Positions 46,639-61,861 of a stretch of 64,000 bases of DNA are shown piece by piece. Positions within the stretch are counted from its first letter, which is position 1. The number at the start of each line of letters is the position of its first letter. The notes under the pieces were generated by a model that saw nothing but the letters and a program-made list of their open reading frames with translations, was not told the origin of the DNA and did not search any database. Origin of the DNA: Dictyostelium discoideum (taxonomy: Eukaryota); NCBI GenBank assembly GCA_000004695.1, contig CM000154.2:2816001-2880000 (forward strand), in the 5' to 3' direction. The translations under genes were made by a program, and so were the position numbers.

Positions 46639-49600
46639 TTATTTTTTTTGGTTATTGTTACCCATTTCATCATCGTCATTGTTATCCATTTCATCATCAT
46701 CATTGTTATCCATTTCTTCATCATAGAAGTCATCCTCCTCATCATTTCCACCCTTGGGTACAACAAAAAATTCATCTTCACTTTGTTCATCACTATCATC
46801 ATTATTATCATCATGATTATCTTTGTTGTTGTCTTGATCAGAGTTTTGAATTGATTGATTTGAATTATTATTTATTTGATTTGATTTATATATATGATCA
46901 AAATCAATTGTTGTGTGTATTAAAAATTTTTCCCAAGTATTATCTTTTGCTAAAACCTTATAGGTACCAATAACGTATAAACCTAACTTGGCTCTTGTTA
47001 GTGCTACATTGATACGTCTACGATCTGAGAGGAAACCAATACCAAATTTTTCGATTGATCTTACACATGACATAATGATGATATCTTTTTCTGAACCTTG
47101 AACACCATCAATTGTTGAAACTGAAATATTTAAATTATGATGTTCAGATCTATTTAGTTGTTCTTTGATTTGATTCATTTGTAATTTATAGGGAGTAATT
47201 ATACCAAATGATAGCTTTTTACATTCTGGATATTTTTCAATTAGTTCCTTTATTAAAGTAAATACCTTATCAATTTCATCTTGATTCATTATGGATTTTT
47301 TAATAACTTTTTGATTTGATTTTGGTAAATCAAAAAATTTCATCGGTCCAAATGAAGGATCGAAATGGAATTTACAATTGTTATAGGAATCTATTGAAAC
47401 GTTTTCACCATCTTTTAAAGTTCCGTTATAGAATTCTTCAGATATGAATTTTGATGTCACTGGATGCATACGATATTGTGTATTTAAAAATTGGACATCG
47501 ATCGATTTGGCTAATCTTTCAAATAATGATATTTTTAAACCACAGTCAGCACCTTGTTTGGAAAAAATAGTTGGTGGCAATTGAACTGGATCACCAACTA
47601 AAATTAACTTTTTAACAGAACCTAATGATAGTGGAATAATTGAGGTTGGTTCTGAAGATTGCGTAGATTCATCAATCAAAACAATATCTGGAGAAAAGTT
47701 TTCAAAAATAGCCTTTGAACCACTTCCAGCTAAAGTTGAGAAAACAATAGACGCTGATTTGATGAGGTTAATTCTTCTTGATGAATTTTTATTTTTAAGA
47801 GAAATTTTTTGACATTCTGGTGATATTTTTTCTTTTCTGCCAGTTCTAACCATGTTTGGTTTAAATATTTGACCATCACTATTTAATAGATTTTTTAAAC
47901 ATCTTTTTGCAACTTCATCTACTGATGCATGTGAAGGACCACATACCAAAATTTTGAACTTTTTGTCAATAGCTAATAAAACTGAAAGTAAATAATTGAT
48001 GGTTGTGGTTTTACCTGTACCTGGTGGACCTTGAATCAATGTTATACCACTCTCAACTAAAGATGATTTAATAGCATTAAGTTGTGATTCATTTAATTTT
48101 TCTTTACAAATTGTTTCCAAGGTTGGTGGGAATTTCATCATTTTTTGGTTCAAATTATTATTGCACCCTGGATTAAAAATAAGATTTTTAATAAATGGTG
48201 ATGCCTTAAATTCTTGAATGCTTCTAATGAATGTTACACTATTTGAAATTTTATTATAATGAATTGATGATTGAGTACTTGAATTTAATGACTTAGTAAA
48301 AAAGTGTGTTGGATTTGAATATAACAAATCGCAAACTATTGATTGTTGATGTAGGCTACCTTGCATTAAATTTGAAGTTTTTCTTACTATTCCAAATGTA
48401 AATTTTGTGCCATCTAAGCCTATTACTTTGAATAATAATATATCACCTACTGAAATTTCTTCCAGTTTATTTCTATTACCATGAATGATTAGTTCAACAG
48501 TTATAAATTTAGTTTGACGACTTATTTGGACAACTTCAATTGCTTCATTCATTTTAATTTTATCGAAACCTTCAAAAGTTCCATCTTTTGCACTATTAAT
48601 CCCATTAAGTGCATTAATTCCATTTTCAACTTGAGCTCTAAAGTCATCGAAAATTAATGGTTTATTTACTATTTGGTATTCTTTTTCTCCTGTATAATTA
48701 TCTGATAATTCACCTATACCATTTGGTTTTAGCAATGGTATTTTCGAAGGTTCACAACTTAAAATTAGATTTAAAGTTTCATCTGGACTTATTGATATTA
48801 CATCAACATAACTGTATATGTAATCAGCCTTAATCTTTGTATTATTATTATTATTATCATTATTATTTGATTTTTTGGTTCCAATGCTATGGACAGATAT
48901 TGTTTCATTTTTAAATAATTGATGAATTTCAATAAATAATAATTCTAAAACAGTTTCTAATCTTTCAGATTCATTCAATTGAAAATTTGGAATCTTTATT
49001 ATTGGAGATATCTTTGATTGAAAATCTTGAATCATTGTAACTTTAGATTTCTCTAAACACCTTGGATCGAATTTAATTTTGTTTTTTGCTAATTCACTTT
49101 TTAAATCATTGAAGGTAGTTCTATTACCTTTTGTTAAATTCCTTAACTCTATATTCTGGTAGTGATGATTAAACTCTATTAAAGCCATTAATGTTAATGT
49201 TTTTTGATATATCAAATTGACAGAACTTTTACGACTTAAATTTTCAGAGGGAATCAATTGATTTAGAGTTCTATTACAATTATTAATCTGTTGTTCAAAT
49301 GATTTTGTATCTTCTTCAATGATCCTTTTTAATTTGTTTAATTTGTTTTGGTTATTGTTTTCATTCTTTAATAATTTATTCAATTCATTGAGAATAAAAA
49401 GAACACTCTTAGGATCTTCAAATATTTTCATTAATAAACTATTTTTTAAACTTTTTTCAATATCAATTGTACTAGCTATTGGATTTGATAATGTTTGTTT
49501 TGGAGTTGTTATCATATCTAGTTTTGGTAAAGCAATTGTAGCTGGTATTGAAGTTGGGACAGCCGCTGGTGTTGTTGTTAATGTTGGTACAACTTGGTTT

Positions 49601-50901
49601 GTAGTAGTAGTTGTATTTAAACTTGGAGTTGGTAACAATGGGACCAATTTTGGAAGTGATATATCTTTGAATAATTCATTAATATCTTTAAACTTTTTTA
49701 ATCTTATTGAGTTTTCCATATGAATAAATTCAACAATAATTCTAAAGAAAGAATTTTGGATTGAAGAAGCAATATTTCTATCTGTTACAAAAGGATCCAA
49801 TACGATCATAGTACTTTTTAGCAAATCTTCATTAACAAGGGATGATCTTTTAAGTAATGGGCCATTTTTACATAGTGTACCACCGCCACTTGAATGACTG
49901 ATTGAAATAATATTCTCCTTATAGTTGAAAATTGAATAGTAGTTAAAGAATAGGTAGAAAAGTTGATCAATTTTTAATTTATTTTTACTTGAATCAAACT
50001 TATCAAAACTTTTAAATTCATAAAATTCAAAAGAATCAATTCGTTTTAAAATTGGATTTGTTGAATAGCTATTTAATAGTTGAGGTGATTTAGTTTGTAA
50101 ATTTGGTAGAATTGGTGTACTAATCGATTGAAGGAAGTGAATTACCATATTAACCAAACAGAAGGAACTAAATGTATGTTTTGATGCGTCATTCAAATTT
50201 TTACAGCTTGCCCACCATTTAACCAATAATGATAGAATGATATATCTATTATCTATGGAACAATATTCTTTCAATAATAATGAATTAAAATAAGCCTTTG
50301 ATGAATTGCAGCTCATATCGAAATGATACTTTGATGATTTCTCTACAAACCTAATTATTGGTACAGTTGCACTTAATCTCTTTTCAATGATTGTGTATAA
50401 CTTTGTTGACTCTAAATATTTGGAAACCACCTCTAAATGAGTTACTTGATTTTCATTTTGATTGATTTTGAAATTAACATCTAAATCACTACCCTCTAAT
50501 GATAATCCAGTTAAAAATGAACCATAGAGTTGAATAGATGAATCCTTAAATTTATTTGATAAAAACATTTCCAATCTATTGAAACTTTTTTCCTTTTTAC
50601 TAACTCTTTTACATTTAATTTTGTTGAATAGGATAATAAGATCATGGGTTATAGCTTTTTGATGTTTTGGAATTTGATAATTTAAATAAAAATCTGGTAT
50701 ATATTCCTTTAAATAATATGCCATATTTAATATATTTTTTTTAAAATCATTACTATGATATCCTTCTTCAGTAGGTTGTTCTTTTCTAAAGGCCTCAAAT
50801 AGTTTTATTGGGTAATCATCACCAATATTTTTTCTACTCTCAGTTTTATTTTCATTAAATTCTTTGTAAATGTTGTTGAAAATTGTAATTTCATCATTAT
50901 T

Positions 50902-50948
<47 letters not shown>

Positions 50949-51645
50949 TATCATTATCATTATTATTATTATAATTATTATTATTATTTAAAGTATTTGA
51001 GTTTGAGTTTGAGTTTGAGTTTGAGGTTGGTTTTTGAGTTTGAGTTTGAGGTTGAGATTGCGTTTGTGTGATTTTTATAACATCTGGAACCTGTTTTAAA
51101 ATGCCAGTAGCCAATGAAGTTTCTTTTAATAATCTAACCTCTTCAAATAGATTTTTAATGGTCATGATTATATTTCCACCATCGAAAGGAAGAGAAAAAT
51201 TAGGGATTTCAAAATAAATAGATGCACCATCAATGATTTCAATTGGTTTTGAAAATTCACTAAGATTTCTTGTAAATATTTTCTTAATTCCAAATCTTGA
51301 CTGAACACTTTCCAATATTGCTGAACATTTTGAAAAATTTAATCCATAAGCTTTGCAATGCTCTTTTAAATATTTTCTTTGACAAAAAAAATTAAATTCA
51401 ATGACCATTCTTAGAACAAGATATTGATTGTAAAAAATACTTGATTTAATTGATTCATTGGATTGATTTTTTAACATTGCCTTCAAACTATGTAATAATT
51501 TACCTAATAAACCATCTCTTCTACTTTTAGATTTTTTAACAAAATCTTTCATTAAATTTAATTCTATTTCATTGCCTTTAAATTGATTTTTAAAACTATC
51601 TATTACTTGAATTTGATCATTAATATCGATTTCTTTGAAAACCAA
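46639..51645 (-). CDS. Fusion protein, copy 1: Cid1/Gld2-family nucleotidyltransferase (Pol-beta NTase + PAP-associated domain) joined to a UPF1/Mov10-like SF1 RNA helicase, 1668 aa, single exon
   Basis: NTase motif LYGSFLTGLSLEGSDLDVNF (hG[GS]...DxD) at ~50465-50530, with a third acidic residue in KYHFDMSCN. PAP-associated domain is ...FSSFCLVNMVIHFLQ. A T/P-rich linker, a coiled coil and a beta-barrel-like segment (ELIIHGNRNKLEEISVGDILLFKVIGLDG) follow. SF1 motifs: I GPPGTGKTTTI (~48010), II VLIDESTQSSEP, III LILVGDPVQLPPT, IV FLNTQYRMHP, V STIDGVQGSEKDIIIMSCVRS, VI GFLSDRRRINVALTRAK. Acidic tail ...DDDEMDNNDDDEMGNNNQKK. A (GAT)n stretch encodes poly-D. Confidence 0.85.
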
Positions 51646-52145
51646 TTCAAAAATATTATTCCTTTGCGCTTTTTTGATTATTAAAAAAAAAAAAGAAAAA
51701 AAAAAAAAAAAAAAATTAATATAAATAAATATATAAATAAATAAATAAATAAATAAGTAAATAATAAAAAAATAAATAAATGATAAATAATAATTAAATA
51801 AATTATCTAAAAATTAATATTAAAAAAATATTTACACATCTTGGTTTATTTATTTATTTATTCAATAAATAAAAAAAAAAGTTGAAAATTAAATGTAAAA
51901 AATGATTTAAATATTTTTTTATAGGGAGAAGTTTAAAAAAAAAAAACGATTTAAATTTTTTTTTTATAGGTTTTGTTTTTTTTTTTTTGAATCAAGGGAA
52001 AATTTTAAAAAAAAAAAAAAAAAAAAAATTTTAAAAATCGTAAAATTCATCAATTATTAAAAAATCTGAGACATGAAAATTATAATGGACATAATTAAAA
52101 AATAATTTATTATTATTTTATTTATTTGGTTTATTTTGTTTTATT

Positions 52146-52202: not shown

Positions 52203-52324
52203 TAAAAATAATTATAATAAAAAAAAAAAAAAACAAGATAGAAATTATTTTATTTATTTTATTTTATTTATTTTATTTTTATTTTTATTTATTTTTTTTA
52301 TTTTATTTATTTTATTTATTATTA

Positions 52325-55300
52325 TTATTTTTTATTATCATGATTTTTATTTTCTTTGTCGTTGTTGCCCATTTCATCATCGTCATTGTTATCCATTTCA
52401 TCATCATTGTTATCCATTTCTTCATCATCATAAAAGTCATCCTCCTCATCATTTCCACCCTTGGGTACAACAAAAAATTCATCTTCACTTTGTTCATCAC
52501 TATCATCATTATTGTCATCATGATTATTATTATTATTATTATTATTTGTTATTTCTCCACCATTATTTTCATTCTTTATCTCTAATTGATTTTCATTTTC
52601 TTTTTTATTTTCATTTTCATTTTCATTTTTATTTTCATTTTTATTTTCGTTTTCGTTTTCATTTTCATTTTCATTTTTATTTTTATTTTCATTTTCATTT
52701 TTATTTTCATTTTCATTTTCATTTTCACTTTTATTATCAATAGTATTATTATTATGATTATCTTTGTTGTCTTGGTTAGAGTTTTGAATTGATTGAATTG
52801 AATTATTATTTATTTGATTTGATTTATATATCTGATCAAAATCAATTGTTGAGTATTTTAAAAAATTTCCCCAAGTATTATCTTTTTCTAAGACCCAAGA
52901 GGTACCAATAACGTATAAACCTAACTTGGCTCTTGTTAGTGCTACATTGATACGTCTACGATCTGAGAGGAAACCAATTCCATATTTTTCGGTACATCTT
53001 ACACATGACATGATAATGATATCTTTTTCTGAACCTTGAACACCATCAATTGTTGAAACTGAAATATTTAAATAACGATGTTCAGATCTGTTTAATTGTT
53101 CTTTGATTTGAATCATTTGTAATTTATAGGGAGTAATTATACCAAATGATAGCTTTTTACATTCTGGATATTTTTCAATTAGTTCCTTTATTAAAGTAAA
53201 TACCTTATCAATTTCATCTTGATTCATTATGGATTTTTTAATAACTATTTGATCTGATTTTGGTAAATTAAAAAATTTCATTGGCCCGAATGAAGGATCG
53301 AAATGGAATTTACAATTGTTAAAGGAGTCTATCGAAACATTTTCACCATCTTTTAAAGTTCCGTTATAGAATTCTTCAGATATGAATTTTGATATCACTG
53401 GATGCATACGATATTGTGTATTTAAAAATTGGACATCGATCGATTTGGCTAATCTTTCAAATAATGATATTTTTAAACCACAGTCAGCACCATCTTTTGA
53501 AAAAATAGTTGGTGCTAATTGAACTGGGTCACCAACTAAAATTAACTTTTTAATAGAACCTAATGATAGTGGAATAATTGAGGTTGGTTCTGAAGATTGT
53601 GTAGATTCATCAATCAAAACAATATCTGGAGAAAAGTTTTCAAAAATAGCCTTTGAACCACTTCCAGCTAAAGTTGAGAAAACAATAGAGGTTGACTTGA
53701 TGAGGTTAATTCTTCTTGATGAATTTTTATTTTTAAGAGAAATTTTTTGACATTCTGGTGATATTTTTTCTTTTCTGCCAGTTCTAACCATGTTCGGTTT
53801 AAAATTTTGACCATCACTATTTAATAGATTTTTTAAACATCTTTTTGCAACTTCATCTACTGATGCATGTGAAGGACCACATACCAAAATTTTGAACTTT
53901 TTGTCAATAGCTAATAAAACTGAAAGTAAATAATTGATGGTTGTGGTTTTACCTGTACCTGGTGGACCTTGAATCAATGTTATACCACTCTCAACTAAAG
54001 ATGATTTAATAGCATTAAGTTGTGATTCATTTAATTTTTCTTTACAAATTGTTTCCAAGGTTGGTGGGAATTTCATCATTTTTTGGTTCGAATTATTATT
54101 ATTATTATTATTATGTCCTGGATTATAAATAAGATTTTTAATAAATGGTGATGCCTTAAATTCTTGAATGGTTCTAATGAATGTTACACTATTTGAAATT
54201 TTAATATAATCAATTGATGATCTAGTGCTTGGATTTAATGATAAAGTAAAAACATATGTTGGATTTGAATCAAACAAATCACAAACTATTGATTGTTGAT
54301 GTAGGCTACCTTGCATTAAATTTGAAGTTTTTCTTACTATTCCAAATATAAACTTTGTGCCATCTAAGCCTATTACTTTGAATAGTAATATATCACCTAC
54401 TGAAATTTCTTCCAATTTATTTCTATTACCATGAATGATAAGCTCAACAGTTTCAAATTCAGTTTGACGACTTCTTTGGACAACCTCAATTGATTCATTC
54501 ATTTTAATTTTATCGAAACCTTCTAAAGTACCATCTTTTTTACTTAGAATGATCCCATTGAGTGCATTAATTCCATTTTCAACTTGAGCTCTAAAGTCAT
54601 CGAAAATTAATGGTCTCATTAAGTTTTGATATTGTTTATCTCCTGTAAAATTATCTGATAATTCATCAATACCAGTTGCTCTTAGCAATGGTATTTTCGA
54701 AGGTTGACAACTTAAAATTAGATTTAATGTTTCTTCTGGACTTATTGACATTACATCAACATAATCGTATATGTAATTAGCCTTATTATTATTATTATTA
54801 TTATTATTATTTTTTGATTTTTGTATCACGAATACAGAACCTGTTTCCATTTGAAATAATTGATGAATTTCATTAAATAATAATTCTATAACAGTTTCTA
54901 ATCTTTCAGATTCATTCAATTGAAAAGTTGGAATCTTTATTATTGAAGAGATCTTTGATCGAAAATCTTTAATCATTGTAATTTTATCCTCTTTTATACT
55001 CTTTGGATCGAATTTAATTTTGCTTTTTGCTAATTCACTATTTAAATCATTGAAATTAGTTCTATTATCTTTTGTTAAATTCCTTAACTCTATATACTGG
55101 TAGTGATGATTAAACTCTATTAAAGCCATTAATGTTAATGTTTTTTGAAATATCAAATTGACAGAACTTTTACAACTTGTATTTTCAGAGGGAATCAATT
55201 GTTTTAGAGTTTTATTACAATTACTAATCTGTTGACTAAATGAGTCTTTTTCTTCTTCAATGATTTTTTTTAATTTGTTTAATTGATTTCGGATATTGTT

Positions 55301-56846
55301 TTCATTTTTTAATAAATTTTCCAATTCACTGAGAATAAAAACAACATTCTGTGGATTTTGAAATATTTTCATTAATAAACTATTTTCTAAACCTTTTTCA
55401 ACATTTATTGTAGCTGGTTTTGAAGTTTTAGTTGTTAGTGGAGTTGGTTTTGAGGTTGAATTTGTAGTTGTTGTTGTAGTTGGTGGAGCTGGTTTTGAAG
55501 TTGAATTTGTAGTTGAAGTTGGAGTTGGTGCAACTGTTTTTGTAATATTGGTATTTGTAGTTGTATTTGTAATCGGTAACAATGAAACTAGTGTTGGAAG
55601 TGATATATCTTTGAATAATTCATTAATATCTTTAAACTTTTTTAATCTTATTGAGTTTTCCATATGAATAAATTCAATAATAATTCTAAAGAAAGAATTT
55701 TGGATTGAAGAAGCAATATTTCTATCTGTTATAAATGGATCCAATACGATCATAGTACTTTTTAGCAAAGCTTCATTAACAAGGGATGATCTTTTAAGTA
55801 GTGGGCCATTTTTACATAATGAACCGCCGCCACTTGAATGACTGATTGAAATAATATTCTCTTTGTAGTTGAAAATTGAATAGTAGTTAAAGAATAGGTA
55901 GAAAAGTTGATCAATTTTTAATTTATTTTTACTTGAATCAAACTTATCAAAACTTTTAAATTCATAAAATTCAAAAGAATCAATTCGTTTTAAAATTGGA
56001 TTTGTTGAATAGCTATTTAATAGTTGAGGTGATTTAGTGTGTAAATTTGGTAAAATTGGTGTACTAATCGATTGAAGGAAGTGAATTACCATATTAACCA
56101 AACAGTAAGAACTAAATGTATGTTTTGATGCATCATTCAAATTTTTACAGCTTGTTCACCATTTAACCAATAATGATAGAATGATACATCTATTATCTAT
56201 GGAACAATATTCTTTCAATAATAATGAATTAAAATAAGCCTTTGATGAATTGAAACTCATATCGAAATGATACTTTGATGATTTCTCTACAAACCTAATT
56301 ATTGGTACAGTTGCACTTAATCTCTTTTCAATGATTGTGTATAACTTTGTTGACTCTAAATATTTGGAAACCACCTCTAAATGAGTTACTTGATTTTCAT
56401 TTTGATTGATTTTGAAATTAACATCTAAATCACTACCCTCTAATGATAATCCAGTTAAAAATGAACCATAGAGTTGAATAGATGAATCCTTAAATTTATT
56501 TGATAAAAACATTTCCAATCTATTAAAACTATTTTCCTTTTTACTAACTCTTTTGCATTTAATTTTGTTGTATATGATTTCAAGATCATGGTTTACAATT
56601 TTTTGATGTTTTGGAATTTGATTATTTGAATTAGGATCTGGTATAAAATTCCTTGAATAATATGCCATATTTAATATATTATGTTTAAAATCATTACTAT
56701 AATATCCTTCTTCAGTTGGCTTTTCTTTTTTAAAAACCTCTAATAGTTTTATTGGGTAATCATCACCAATATTTTTTCTACTTTCGTTTCTATTTTCATT
56801 AAATTCTTTGTAAATGTTGTTGAAAATTGTAATTTCATCATTATTT

Positions 56847-56899
<53 letters not shown>

Positions 56900-57526
56900 G
56901 TTGTTGTTATTATTGGTTAAAGTGTTTGGTGATTTTGATTGCGTTTGTGTGATTTTTGTAACCTTTGGTACCATTTCTAAAACACCAGTACCCAATGAGG
57001 TTTTTTTTAATATTGTAACCTCTTCACGTAGATTTTTAATGGACATGATAATATTTCCACCTTCGAAAGGAAGAGAAAAATTAGGGATTTCTAAATGAAT
57101 AGCACCATCAATGATTTCAATTGGTTTTGAAAATTCACTTGGATCTCTTGTCAATAGTCTCTTTGTTCCACCTAATCTTGAATGAATATTATCCAATTTT
57201 GGTGAATATTTTGAAATATTTAAACCATTGGTTTCACAATACTCTTTGAAATAAATTCTTTGATAATAAAAATTAAATTCGATGATCATTCTAAAAACAA
57301 GATATTGATTGTAAAGAATACTTGATTTAATTGATTTAAAGGATTGTTTTTTAAACATGGTCTTCAAATGACTTGATATTCCACCTCCTAAACTATTTCT
57401 TCTACTTTTAGATTTTTTTATAAAATCTTTCATTAAATTTAATTTTATTTCATTGCCTTTAAATTGATTTTTAAAACTATCTATTACTTGAATTTGATCA
57501 TTAATATCGATTTCTTTGAAAACCAA
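52325..57526 (-). pseudogene. NTase-helicase fusion gene, copy 2: colinear paralog of 46639..51645, interrupted by one in-frame TGA between the NTase/PAP module and the helicase module (pseudogene, or split into two ORFs)
   Basis: ORF 56156..57526 (456 aa: N-terminus, NTase motif LYGSFLTGLSLEGSDLDVNF, start of PAP domain) ends ...LLVKW* at TGA 56156..56158, where copy 1 has TGG (WWAS). The frame continues open as ORF 52325..56140 (...TSCKNLNDASKHTFSSYCLVNMVIHFLQ..., all SF1 motifs I-VI intact; the next true ATG is the M of VNMVIH). Copy-specific changes: a poly-N tract ((AAT)n) where copy 1 has poly-D, and a C-terminal (ENENKN)n expansion from (TTTTCA)n. Nucleotide identity to copy 1 is ~93% in the helicase core (one 200-nt stretch compared by eye) and lower elsewhere. 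Confidence 0.75.
52566..52735. repeat. (TTTTCA/TTTTCG/TTTTTA)n hexamer microsatellite inside the copy-2 helicase gene (encodes (ENENKN)n on the minus strand)
   Basis: ttttcattttcattttcatttttattttcatttttattttcgttttcgttttcattttcattttcatttttattt.... In frame within ORF 52325..56140; absent from copy 1. Confidence 0.8.
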
Positions 57527-58222
57527 TTCAAAAATATTATTTCTTTGCGCTTTTTCGATTATTAAAAAAAAAAAAAAAATTAGTTGACATATTTAAAAAA
57601 ATAAATCAAAAAATAAATAAATAATAAATAATAAATAATTAATATTTTAAAAATATTTACCCATCTTAATTTATTTATTTATTGAAGCTGTGTTCAATAT
57701 AGAATAAATAAATATAAAAAGTTTAAAATTAAATAATTTTTAAATTTATTATTACAGGCTTTGTTTTTTTTTTTTGAATTAAGGGAGAAGCTTTTTTTTT
57801 TTGAAAAGATTAAAAAAAAAAAATAAAAAATAAAAAAAAATAAAAATCTTTTTCAATCGTAAAATTCATCAATTAATATTTTCTATCTGAGATAAGAAAA
57901 TTTTAATAAACAACATAATTAAAAAACAATTATTTTTTAGTATTTAATTTTTTTTGGTTCAATTATTTTATTTTTATTTTATTTTATTTTTTTTATTTTA
58001 TTTGTTTTGTTGTCAATTTTTTTTTTTTTTTTTTTTTTTTTGGTTTTATTTTTCATTTTTTTAATTTTATTTATTTTTAATAAAAATTTATTATACAATA
58101 ATAGAGCACCCCAGAAACACAAAATGATTTAAAATATAAAAAAATTTAATTTTTTACATATCTCACACCTTCATTTCTGAATATAGTTTAGATTATTATT
58201 ATTATTATTGTTATTATCATTA

Positions 58223-58593: not shown

Positions 58594-59725
58594 ATGGAAT
58601 GTGAAGATGTTCGACCTATAGTTATTGATAATGGTTCTGGTATGTATAAAGCTGGTTTTGCTAGTGATGATGCTCCACGTACAATTTTTCCATCAATTGT
58701 TGGTCATCCAAAGTGCAATGGTTTTATGGTTGACATAGATCAAAAAGATTCATATGTTGGTGATGAAGCTCAATCAAAAAGGGGTATTCTAAATGTTAAA
58801 TATCCAATTGAACGTGGTATTATTACCAATTGGGATGATATGGAAAAAATCTGGTATCATACTTTTTATAATGAACTTGGTGTTTCCTATGGAACATCCA
58901 GTTCTCTTAACTGAACCACCACTAAATCCAAATAAAAATAGAGAGAAAATGACTCAAATCATGTTTGAAACTTTCAATACTCCTGAATTGTATGTTGCAA
59001 TTCAAGCTGTATTATCATTATATGCTTCTGATCGTACAACTGGTATCGTTTTGGATTCAGGTGATGGTGTTTCCCATACCGTACCGGTTTATGGTAGTTA
59101 TGCATTACCTCATGCAATTAGACGTTTACATTTAGCTGGTGGTGATCTTACTGATTACATGTGTAGAATGTTAAACTTTGAACGTTGTTACTCATTCACA
59201 ACAACTACTGAAAGAGAAGTAGTTAGAGGTATTAAAGAGAAATTAGCATATGTTGCATTGGATTTTGGAGCTGAAATGCAAACTGCAGCCTCATCATCTG
59301 CATTAGAGAAATCATATGAATTACCAGATGGCCAAGTTATTACAATCGGTAATGAACGTTTCCGTTGTCCAGAAGCACTTTTCCAACCGTCATTATTGGC
59401 TATGGACTATGATGGTATTCATGAAACAATCTATAATTCAATCATGAAATGTGATGTTGGTATTCATAAAGATTTATTTGGTAGTGTTGTATTATCAGGT
59501 GGTTCAACTATGTTCCCTGGTATTGCAGATCGTATGAATAAAGAATTAACTGCACTTGCACCATCAACAATGAAAATTAAAATTATTGCACCACCAGAAC
59601 GTAAATACTCTGTATGGATTGGTGGTTCAATTTTAGCTTCAGTTTCAACTTTCCAACAAATTTGTATTTCAAAAGAAGAATATGACGAATCTGGTCCATC
59701 AATTGTTCACAGAAAATGTTTCTAA
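58594..59725 (+). pseudogene. Divergent actin paralog with a 2-bp deletion frameshift (actin pseudogene, or a sequencing error)
   Basis: ORF 58594..58914 ([40 protein letters not shown]...[19 protein letters not shown]) switches frame to ORF 58793..59725 (...[39 protein letters not shown]...IVHRKCF*). Paralog 2 has cgtgttgctccagaggaacatcc (RVAPEEHP) where this copy has ggtgtttcctatggaacatcc, two nucleotides shorter (~58878-58900). It is otherwise full length. Confidence 0.7.
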
Positions 59726-60727: not shown

Positions 60728-61861
60728 ATGGAATGTAAAGAAGACCTAACAATAGTTATTGATAATGGTTCTGGTATGTGTAAAGCTGGTTTTGCTGGTT
60801 ATGATGCTCCACATGCAGTTTTTCCATCAATTGTTGGTCGTCCTAGACATACTGGTGTTATGGTTGGTATGGGTCAAAAGGATTCATATATTGGTGATGA
60901 AGCTCAATCAAAAAGGGATATTCTAAATCTTAAATTTCCAGTTGAGCGTGGTATTATTACCAATTGGAATGATATGGAAGAAATCTGGCATCATACTTTT
61001 TATAATGAACTTCGTGTTGCTCCAGAGGAACATCCAGTTCTCTTAACTGAACCGCCATTAAATTCAAAAGCAAATAGAGAGAAAATGCCTCAAATCATGT
61101 TTGAAACTTTCAATACTCCTGCAATGTATGTTGCAATTCAAGCTGTATTATCATTATATGCATCTGGTCGTGCAACTGGTGTCATTCTGGATTCAGGTGA
61201 TGGTGTTTCTTATACTGTACCAGTTTATGAAGGTAATACATTTCCACTTTCAATTACACGTTTACATTTAGCTGGTGGTGATCTTACTGATTACATGAGT
61301 AGATTATTATACACTGATTGTGGTTACTACTTTTCAACAAAAGCTGAAAAAGAAATAGTTAAAGATATTAAAGAGAAATTAGCATATGTTGCATTGGATT
61401 TTGAAGCTGAAATGCAAACTGCAGCCTCATCGCCTTCATTAGAGAAATCATATAAATTACCAGATGGTCGAATGATCACAATTGGTAATGAACGTTTCCG
61501 TTGTCCAGAAGCACTTTTCCAACCATCATTATTGGCTATGGACTATGATGGTATTCATGAAACAACCTATAATTCAATCATGAAATGTGATGTTGATTTT
61601 CATAAAGATTTATATGGTAATGTTTTATTATCAGGTGGTTCAACTATGTTCCCAGGTATTGCAGATCGTATGAATAAAGAATTAACTGCACTTGCACCAT
61701 CAACAATGAAAATTAAAATTATTGCACCACCAGAACGTAAATACTCTGCATGGATTGGTGGTTCAATTTTAGCCTCACTTTCAAGTTTCCAACCAAGGTG
61801 GATTTCAAAAGAAGAATATGACGAATCTGGTCCATCAATTGTTCACAGAAAATGTTGGTAA
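60728..61861 (+). CDS. Divergent actin-family protein, 377 aa, intact, single exon
   Basis: Colinear with conventional actin over the full length: [63 protein letters not shown]...[16 protein letters not shown]...[48 protein letters not shown]. Many substitutions relative to canonical Dictyostelium actin (MDGEDVQALV...HRKCF). Confidence 0.85.

Follow-up and report, generated by a model that had tools for sequence, protein, structure and literature searches.

A derived stop codon inside the nucleotidyltransferase of one of two tandem nucleotidyltransferase-helicase genes in Dictyostelium discoideum

The tandem genes and the position of the stop codon

We analyzed a 64,000-nucleotide stretch of the Dictyostelium discoideum genome (GenBank assembly GCA_000004695.1, contig CM000154.2, forward-strand positions 2,816,001 to 2,880,000), here called the window, in which two tandem copies of a large gene code for a nucleotidyltransferase (NTase) and a superfamily 1B (SF1B) helicase within one polypeptide. 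One of the two, copy 2, is interrupted by an in-frame TGA codon. The window belongs to chromosome 5, and its open reading frame (ORF) at 60728..61861 matches act24 (DDB_G0289505, AX4) with full identity. Gene order along the locus is glutaminyl-tRNA synthetase, a WD40 gene, the two large-gene copies on the minus strand, and an actin cluster. The copies lie 5.7 kb apart and are 97% identical (444 differences), and both have a 4-base first exon (ATGT in copy 1, ATGG in copy 2), a single AT-rich intron, and the remainder in a single exon. The genes of 1677, 465, and 1255 amino acids (aa) annotated in a second D. discoideum assembly, GCA_054883475.1, are the same as the models derived here. The gene models and the interruption are as follows.

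46639..51839, minus strand: copy 1, the intact paralog, 1677-aa model (exon 1, ATGT, 51839..51836; intron, 51835..51669; exon 2, 51668..46639)
52325..57664, minus strand: copy 2, whole gene with the in-frame stop
56156..57664, minus strand: upstream model of copy 2, 465 aa (exon 1, ATGG, 57664..57661; intron, 57660..57550, 111 nt; exon 2, 57549..56156)
56156..56158, minus strand: in-frame TGA in copy 2, replacing a Trp codon (TGG) conserved in relatives
56155..56156, minus strand: tandem GG to AA change (CC to TT on the plus strand), which makes the stop and turns the next codon from GCA (Ala) into ACA (Thr)
52325..56092, minus strand: downstream ORF of copy 2, 1255 aa, from the first in-frame ATG (MVIHFLQ...)

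An initial annotation had placed a TGA at 56156..56158 of copy 2, in a frame otherwise intact on both sides and with the catalytic motifs conserved, and these statements were borne out. The minus strand of copy 2 reads ...TTG GTT AAA TGG TGA ACA AGC TGT AAA..., within the context AAAUGGUGAACAAGC; its counterpart in copy 1 is AAA TGG TGG GCA AGC at 50220..50206 (TGG at 50214..50212), and the ORF of copy 1 (46639..51645) continues uninterrupted, reading ...LLVKWWASCKNL... across the site. In copy 2, the frame is open for 456 codons upstream of the TGA (56156..57526) and for 1271 codons downstream of it (ORF 52325..56140), giving one stop and zero frameshifts in 1,728 codons. Both copies retain the GS..DLD motif and the third Asp (in HFDMS) of the NTase, as well as GPPGTGKT, DESTQ, and RRINVALTRAK of the helicase. 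Two details had to be amended. What had been described as a single TGG to TGA change consists of two adjacent G to A differences, at 56156 and 56155 (tgG Gca in copy 1 versus tgA Aca in copy 2), and the NTase length of 456 aa was an artifact of an ORF finder starting at TTG, the product being 465 aa long once the 4-base exon and the 111-nt intron are included.

The two copies are ∼98% identical around the stop. Since there are only 10 differences in ∼660 nt, the adjacent pair of G to A changes is more likely to reflect a single mutational event than two independent ones. At this site, Dictyostelium purpureum has Trp-Ala (LLVKYWAQQK), and a syntenic single-copy orthologue in the cryptic sister species Dictyostelium cf. 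discoideum (GCA_054859205.1, locus L004:6800-11900; flanks 89-92% identical) has TGG GCA. Both G to A changes are therefore derived in copy 2.

Domains and motifs of copy 2 on either side of the stop were located as follows.

56204..56587, minus strand: NTase catalytic palm (Pfam MTPAP-like_central, ORF residues 314-441)
56414..56470, minus strand: GS..DLD motif of the palm
56255..56269, minus strand: third catalytic Asp (HFDMS)
56105..56155, minus strand: conserved T/A-SCKNLNDASKHTFSS[YF] motif of the Cid1 family at the start of the NTase C-terminal domain, directly after the stop and absent from the 465-aa product
55724..55909, minus strand: PAP-associated domain of the NTase (PF03828; E 1.1e-7, 32.5 bits, cut-off 22.6), 83-144 residues after the stop
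52901..54037, minus strand: SF1B helicase core (AAA_11 plus AAA_12), residues 702-1080 of the downstream ORF
53945..53968, minus strand: helicase Walker A
53597..53617, minus strand: helicase DESTQ
52925..52957, minus strand: helicase motif VI

The initial annotation had put the stop exactly at the junction between NTase and helicase; it actually falls well inside the NTase. In both copies, YGSFLTGLSLEGSDLDVNF and HFDMS provide the GS motif and the three catalytic carboxylates (DxD plus D) of a palm of the polymerase-beta type, which Pfam recognized as MTPAP-like_central (E 1.6e-20 in copy 2, 8.5e-20 in copy 1) and which was also matched by TUTase and NTP_transf_2. This palm ends at residue 441 of the 456 in the upstream ORF, ∼15 residues before the stop, whereas the PAP-associated domain, which forms the second half of all Cid1-family enzymes, begins 83 residues after the stop and the first helicase domain, AAA_11, only at residue 702 of the downstream ORF. 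Palm and PAP-associated domain thus stand together in the single polypeptide of copy 1 (PAP_assoc at the equivalent place, E 1.2e-7), but not in the 465-aa product of copy 2. Alignments to chains in the Protein Data Bank (PDB) continued across the site: those to TUT4, TUT7, GLD-2, URT1, and Cid1 (E 6e-30 to 1e-16) reached ∼105 to 185 residues beyond the stop, the segment VKWWASCKNLNDASKHTFSSF aligned with MKVFAKRCDIGDASRGSLSSY of TUT4, and the motif directly behind it aligned to TUT4/TUT7 (..KVFAKRCDIGDASRGSLSSYAY..). In the Cid1 family, the motif located right after the stop site binds the nucleotide triphosphate, as known from Cid1 structures. A word-indexed protein database search with the region spanning the stop gave Drosophila TUT4, at 25-26% identity, as its sole match and no protein from Dictyostelium. 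The NTase homology of D. purpureum covers residues 360-660 of copy 1, in which the stop position corresponds to residue 487, and the alignment of the putative restart Met (MVIHFLQ) falls on residue 201 of 364 in a GLD-2 chain. With the palm before the stop, PAP_assoc after it, and homology running across the site, the stop bisects the NTase: it lies inside a Cid1/TUT-type NTase, with the catalytic palm on one side and the C-terminal (PAP-associated) domain on the other.

Accordingly divided are the contents of the gene models. Copy 1 carries the NTase at residues ∼356-660, followed by the helicase at residues 1183-1561. The 465-aa model of copy 2 contains a fast-evolving N-terminal region and the NTase palm only, and its 1255-aa ORF has what is left of the NTase C-terminal domain, plus linker, middle region, helicase, and acidic tail. 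Within this tail, copy 2 has an in-frame insertion of 77-79 codons of N/E/K repeats (..NENENENKNENENKNKNENE..; 52523-52759, minus strand) that copy 1 lacks.

Authenticity and age of the lesion

Sequencing or assembly errors, for example through cross-talk between the 97%-identical copies, could create such a stop, and the high identity immediately around the site is of a kind that can mislead assemblers. Assembly GCA_054883475.1 (CM142511.1), however, has the same TGA and showed zero mismatches to the window over 13.3 kb. The two differ by four indels only, at 52219, 58230, 59808, and 60093 (1, 15, 1, and 11 bases long), all of them in intergenic A/T homopolymers, and these differences in homopolymer length argue that GCA_054883475.1 was independently built. 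It very probably represents AX2-214, whose genome Holland et al. 2025 assembled de novo with Nanopore and Illumina reads (PMC12745789). Furthermore, A is present at the two positions in neither copy 1 nor any relative, so the paralog cannot have been the source. The base-call error proposed in the initial annotation was therefore rejected, and we consider an artifact of any such kind extremely unlikely.

Both AX2 and AX4 were derived from DdB/NC4 (PMC4374526), and according to Bloomfield et al. 2015 (PMC4374526) they have the same axeB lesion and probably a common axenic ancestor. Owing to the descent from DdB/NC4, the allele is confirmed for the NC4-derived lineage only. Laboratory mutagenesis was considered as a possible origin of the GG to AA change, which the window has in common with the second assembly, probably AX2-214. 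Exact look-ups of neighboring genes (act24, the 385-aa actin, the 595-aa WD40 gene, and a 425-aa ORF) returned two laboratory-strain records or none, and no wild isolate. Copy 2 of the NC4-derived laboratory lineage has very recently acquired a GG to AA change that places a stop inside its transferase.

How recently was assessed from the selection that has acted on copy 2. Between the copies, the ratio of nonsynonymous to synonymous divergence (dN/dS, omega) was 0.61 for the whole gene, and lineage-specific nonsynonymous (N) and synonymous (S) changes were polarised with the sister-species locus as the outgroup.

Pairwise dN/dS, N-terminal region: 0.86
Pairwise dN/dS, NTase palm: 0.36
Pairwise dN/dS, NTase C-terminal domain: 0.18
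Pairwise dN/dS, linker: 0.80
Pairwise dN/dS, middle region: 0.51
Pairwise dN/dS, helicase: 0.34
Polarised changes upstream of the stop: copy 1, 49N/8S; copy 2, 44N/14S
Polarised changes downstream of the stop: copy 1, 64N/35S; copy 2, 102N/35S (Fisher p = 0.11)
Polarised changes in the downstream enzymatic domains: copy 1, 23N/20S; copy 2, 37N/24S (copy 2 omega 0.41; more synonymous changes than expected under neutrality, p = 8e-4)
Polarised changes in the helicase: copy 1, 6N/5S; copy 2, 20N/15S (copy 2 omega 0.37)

The lineage-specific dN/dS of copy 2 was indistinguishable from that of copy 1; the relaxed constraint throughout copy 2 that would mark a plain pseudogene was not seen for the time before the stop arose. 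In a relative-rate test with D. purpureum as the outgroup, derived amino acid changes were balanced as well, with 2 versus 2 in the NTase and, for middle region plus helicase, 7 in copy 2 versus 10 in copy 1. Because the ORF is AT rich, 6.2% of random substitutions in it create a stop. Under neutral accumulation of half the 444 differences in copy 2, the expectation is 13.8 stops, and the probability of at most one is 1.5e-5; the absence of a second stop caps the neutral divergence of copy 2 at ∼1%. The several lesions and the dN/dS near 1 of a long-decayed pseudogene were likewise not found in copy 2. This deficit of stops, together with the omega values and the balanced rates, indicates that copy 2 was under purifying selection for nearly its whole history, essentially until the lesion, and that the lesion is very recent. 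The signal predates the stop and is silent on selection afterwards.

In the N-terminal region and the linker (model residues 3-355 and 661-965; 57549-56500 and ∼55600-54700 in copy 2), dN/dS was ∼0.8-1.25 in every comparison, be it of copy 1 with copy 2 or of either copy with the sister species, and the frame is nevertheless open in both D. discoideum copies. The helicase of copy 2 (52901-54037), with the sister-species locus as the outgroup, has accumulated ∼3 times as many changes as that of copy 1, both synonymous (15 versus 5) and nonsynonymous (20 versus 6; p = 5e-4). Omega is equal between the copies, and the excess may reflect a conversion mosaic or an older duplication of the segment.

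Synonymous divergence between the copies was heterogeneous across regions (p = 1e-6). It amounted to 0.03-0.09 in the palm, the NTase C-terminal domain, and the helicase, in which a stretch of 200 alignment columns is 100% identical between the copies, and to 0.15-0.34 in the N-terminal region, linker, middle region, and tail, values that bracket the interspecies divergence of ∼0.18. Low synonymous divergence limited to the enzymatic domains indicates that these have been homogenized since the duplication, by gene conversion confined to the conserved domains. Such homogenization implies that the stop is younger than the last conversion around it; a future conversion could repair the stop of copy 2 or carry it into copy 1.

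Fate of copy 2 and of its helicase half

Of the explanations offered in the initial annotation, that of a young pseudogene fits these data best, given a derived change, zero second lesions despite the frequency at which substitutions create stops in this ORF, and a dN/dS of copy 2 like that of copy 1. We think it probable that copy 2 is a nascent pseudogene or null allele, that is, a very young nonsense allele in a redundant tandem duplicate whose decay has just begun. Translation from the normal start would yield a 465-aa fragment with the three catalytic carboxylates but, judging from the Cid1 family, without the nucleotide-binding half, and this fragment is predicted to be most likely enzymatically dead. 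The helicase of copy 2 would be translated inefficiently, since 1,262 codons follow the premature stop in the same mRNA. Loss of copy 2 would presumably be tolerated because the intact copy 1 supplies the function, and the lesion may simply be too young for further decay to have followed.

The fate of the gene in the sister species is relevant here. Upstream of its helicase, the D. cf. discoideum orthologue has ∼11 frameshifting deletions (1, 1, 1, 11, 14, 2, 10, 8, 1, 8, and 1 nt), one of which, 10 nt long, lies within the palm, and one in-frame stop. These frameshifts are unlikely to be assembly errors, since the neighboring genes are annotated as complete. The last 550 codons, which encode the helicase, are open and have all motifs intact, with no excess of derived residues (8 versus 5), and the orthologue is annotated as two genes of 922 aa and 593 aa (the latter P0030). 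A homology search with P0030 detected no close orthologue in D. citrinum, D. firmibasis, or a second cf. discoideum isolate. Decay of this orthologue shows that the gene is expendable in the clade, which fits the interpretation of copy 2 as a pseudogene.

Several observations weigh against that interpretation. The frame downstream of the stop is fully open over 1,262 codons with all helicase motifs intact, which is expected if the lesion is young but equally fits a retained helicase product, and in the sister species, too, the helicase ORF is the sole part left open, hinting that the helicase half may be valuable alone. UGA is generally the leakiest stop codon, and its decoding by near-cognate tRNA-Trp would restore the ancestral residue. 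Finally, both assemblies trace to one wild isolate (NC4/DdB), the lineage to which confirmation of the allele extends.

The first two of these points raise the question of whether copy 2 is turning, or has already turned, into a helicase-only gene, with a dispensable NTase half and the helicase produced from the 1255-aa or a shorter ORF by an internal start, reinitiation, or leaky scanning. Consistent with this, the downstream ORF is open, the copy 2-specific changes in the helicase have an omega of 0.37, the helicase ORF of the sister species has survived, with a rate of amino acid change that is not raised, behind a region full of frameshifts, and helicase-bearing genes of 1255 aa and 593 aa (P0030), respectively, are annotated in the two new assemblies. 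However, the signal of purifying selection in copy 2 is older than the stop, and the first residue of the 1255-aa product would lie within the NTase C-terminal domain. The 63 nt between the stop and the next ATG have a coding-like GC content of 23-27%, compared to 6-14% in the intergenic DNA flanking the copies, so that there is no AT-rich spacer or promoter-like composition before the ATG at 56092. Eukaryotic ribosomes reinitiate very inefficiently after an ORF as long as 465 codons. Moreover, the annotated models are automatic ORF rescues; the same pipeline splits a frameshifted actin gene into models of 106 aa and 258 aa. Altogether, we regard a helicase-only function of copy 2 as unlikely. 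A broader version of the idea, in which the D. discoideum clade is repeatedly shedding the NTase half and copy 2 represents an early stage of a recurrent conversion to an expressed helicase-only gene, is suggested by the fact that the NTase side is frameshifted in D. cf. discoideum and that the first lesion of copy 2 is again in the NTase; this, too, seems doubtful to us.

The third point could mean that the UGA is usefully read through, likely as Trp by near-cognate tRNA-Trp, so that some full-length NTase-helicase is still made from copy 2. In favor of this, TGG to TGA is the sole nonsense change for which near-cognate decoding restores the original residue, and everything downstream of the stop is intact. 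Yet the youth of the mutation already explains the intact ORF, and the stop is followed by A (UGA-A), a context not known to promote readthrough. No SECIS or other Rfam element was found in the window, although no search was made for a conserved downstream structure. We therefore judge functional readthrough to be very unlikely.

Two further ways around the stop were discarded. Recoding as selenocysteine or suppression by a tRNA was rejected because an Rfam scan of the window recovered no family at gathering score and hence no selenocysteine insertion sequence (SECIS), a tRNA scan of the window recovered no tRNA gene, and the residue was ancestrally Trp rather than Cys or Sec. A 48-nt in-frame GT..AG interval (GTGAAC...TTTAG) that begins 2 nt before the stop might in principle be spliced out, which would delete the conserved KNLNDASKHTFS motif; from its very short length, poor 5' site, and coding-like composition, it was rejected as a candidate intron.

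For copy 2 as a nascent pseudogene, the 465-aa and 1255-aa models would be two pieces of one freshly broken paralog rather than separate NTase and helicase genes, and neither should be cited in support of a stand-alone enzyme. The actin gene adjoining copy 2 (58594-59725, plus strand) changes frame at about residue 97 and is a second broken tandem duplicate in the neighborhood; the annotation of GCA_054883475.1 divides it into its 106-aa and 258-aa genes in the same manner as copy 2.

The fusion family and comparison with known systems

Fusion of the two domains is not peculiar to D. discoideum. An exhaustive profile search recovered NTase and helicase fused in D. purpureum (P0005, DICPUDRAFT_150267; both domains in one 1106-codon ORF), Heterostelium album, Cavenderia fasciculata (three proteins), Acytostelium subglobosum (099420 and 099440, neighboring genes), and Polysphondylium violaceum (CYY_005907); the members from H. 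album and C. fasciculata are named "Regulator of nonsense transcripts-like." Altogether, the fusion was recovered in seven dictyostelid genera. Among the dictyostelid relatives found to carry both domains, none had them on separate proteins. These relatives resemble the D. discoideum genes in combining NTase and helicase in a single polypeptide, at 36-41% identity, with homology that includes the region before the helicase, and in that neighboring paralogs are common. They differ in domain order, which was read from the proteins scanned with Pfam or aligned (P0031-P0036, L003:13882-17202; P0179 left out): in the relatives, the helicase precedes a terminal NTase, whereas the NTase comes first in both D. 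discoideum copies and in D. cf. discoideum. Occurrence of the same fusion across the relatives points to an old, conserved arrangement of which the order alone was permuted in the D. discoideum clade; as judged by sequence comparison, the fusion is ancient across Dictyostelia and its domain order is reversed in that clade. The extreme N-terminus (..NNIF..VF..) is common to D. discoideum and D. purpureum. In D. purpureum P0005, residues ∼1385-1550 include GLTGTGKT and IDDATQ in place of GPPGTGKT and IDESTQ, with the Glu of motif II apparently changed to Asp.

As far as the literature was searched, none of these proteins has been functionally characterized, and nothing specific on a Dictyostelium NTase-helicase protein emerged. 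The stop itself is ordinary, and the more useful object is this uncharacterized family in which a Cid1-type NTase is fused to a Sen1/UPF1-like helicase. Duplication, partial gene conversion, and decay in the sister species form a pattern of turnover that is typical of RNA-surveillance or genome-defence genes, and the natural lesions (copy 2 in AX2/AX4 and the frameshifted gene of the sister species) offer ready-made contrasts.

With respect to its NTase, the family is related to Cid1, TUT4, TUT7, GLD-2, and URT1, which likewise have a palm with GS..DxD..D, then the K..K / SS[YF] region, and then PAP_assoc. In contrast to these enzymes, the D. discoideum NTase is part of a 1677-aa protein that also contains an SF1B helicase, and in copy 2 the stop separates its halves. 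The helicase of copy 2 was detected by Pfam with E 9e-60 for AAA_12 and E 4e-47 for AAA_11, and its motifs are identical in copy 1, copy 2, and the sister-species locus. Against solved structures, the helicase segment of copy 1 was closest to Sen1 (E 9e-70) and UPF1/Nam7 (E 1e-57), and ZNFX1, the only chain of the ZNFX1/Hrr1 group among the solved structures listed, followed at E 1e-26. It shares with the Sen1/UPF1-like helicases a complete motif set (Walker A, DExx, and motif VI), but Pfam detected neither the Sen1 N-terminal domain nor the UPF1 CH domain, and it is fused to an NTase.

A pairing of a Cid1-family NTase with a superfamily 1 (SF1) helicase is also known from the RNA-directed RNA polymerase complex (RDRC) of Schizosaccharomyces pombe, in which Cid12 (NTase) and Hrr1 (SF1 helicase, the ZNFX1 orthologue) are separate subunits (bioRxiv 10.1101/220111). 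The initial annotation had suggested that the stop of copy 2 might be a natural un-fusion into an NTase and a helicase, mirroring the two-protein arrangement of other organisms. Both ORFs are indeed long and contain their catalytic motifs, and RDRC provides a precedent for a stand-alone NTase (here 456/465 aa) next to a stand-alone helicase. As described, however, the un-fusion finds no support. The stop is located within the NTase fold instead of at a domain boundary, so that the products do not each hold whole domains: PAP_assoc and the conserved SCK..SSY motif are missing from the upstream product, the product restarting at the M of VNMVIHFLQ opens midway through the NTase C-terminal domain, and the helicase follows only ∼700 residues beyond the stop. 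The dictyostelid relatives, all of them fused, offer no two-protein arrangement nearby to mirror, and the greater similarity of the helicase to Sen1 and UPF1 than to ZNFX1 does not agree with Hrr1/ZNFX1 orthology. A functional un-fusion is thus exceedingly improbable, and the resemblance to RDRC is one of analogy, not membership.

The closest parallel for copy 2 as a probable nascent pseudogene is the pseudogenization of duplicate genes by a single nonsense mutation (nascent or polymorphic pseudogenes), which it resembles in having one derived stop, an intact tandem paralog, and zero further lesions. It differs in being too young for an omega near 1 or several lesions.

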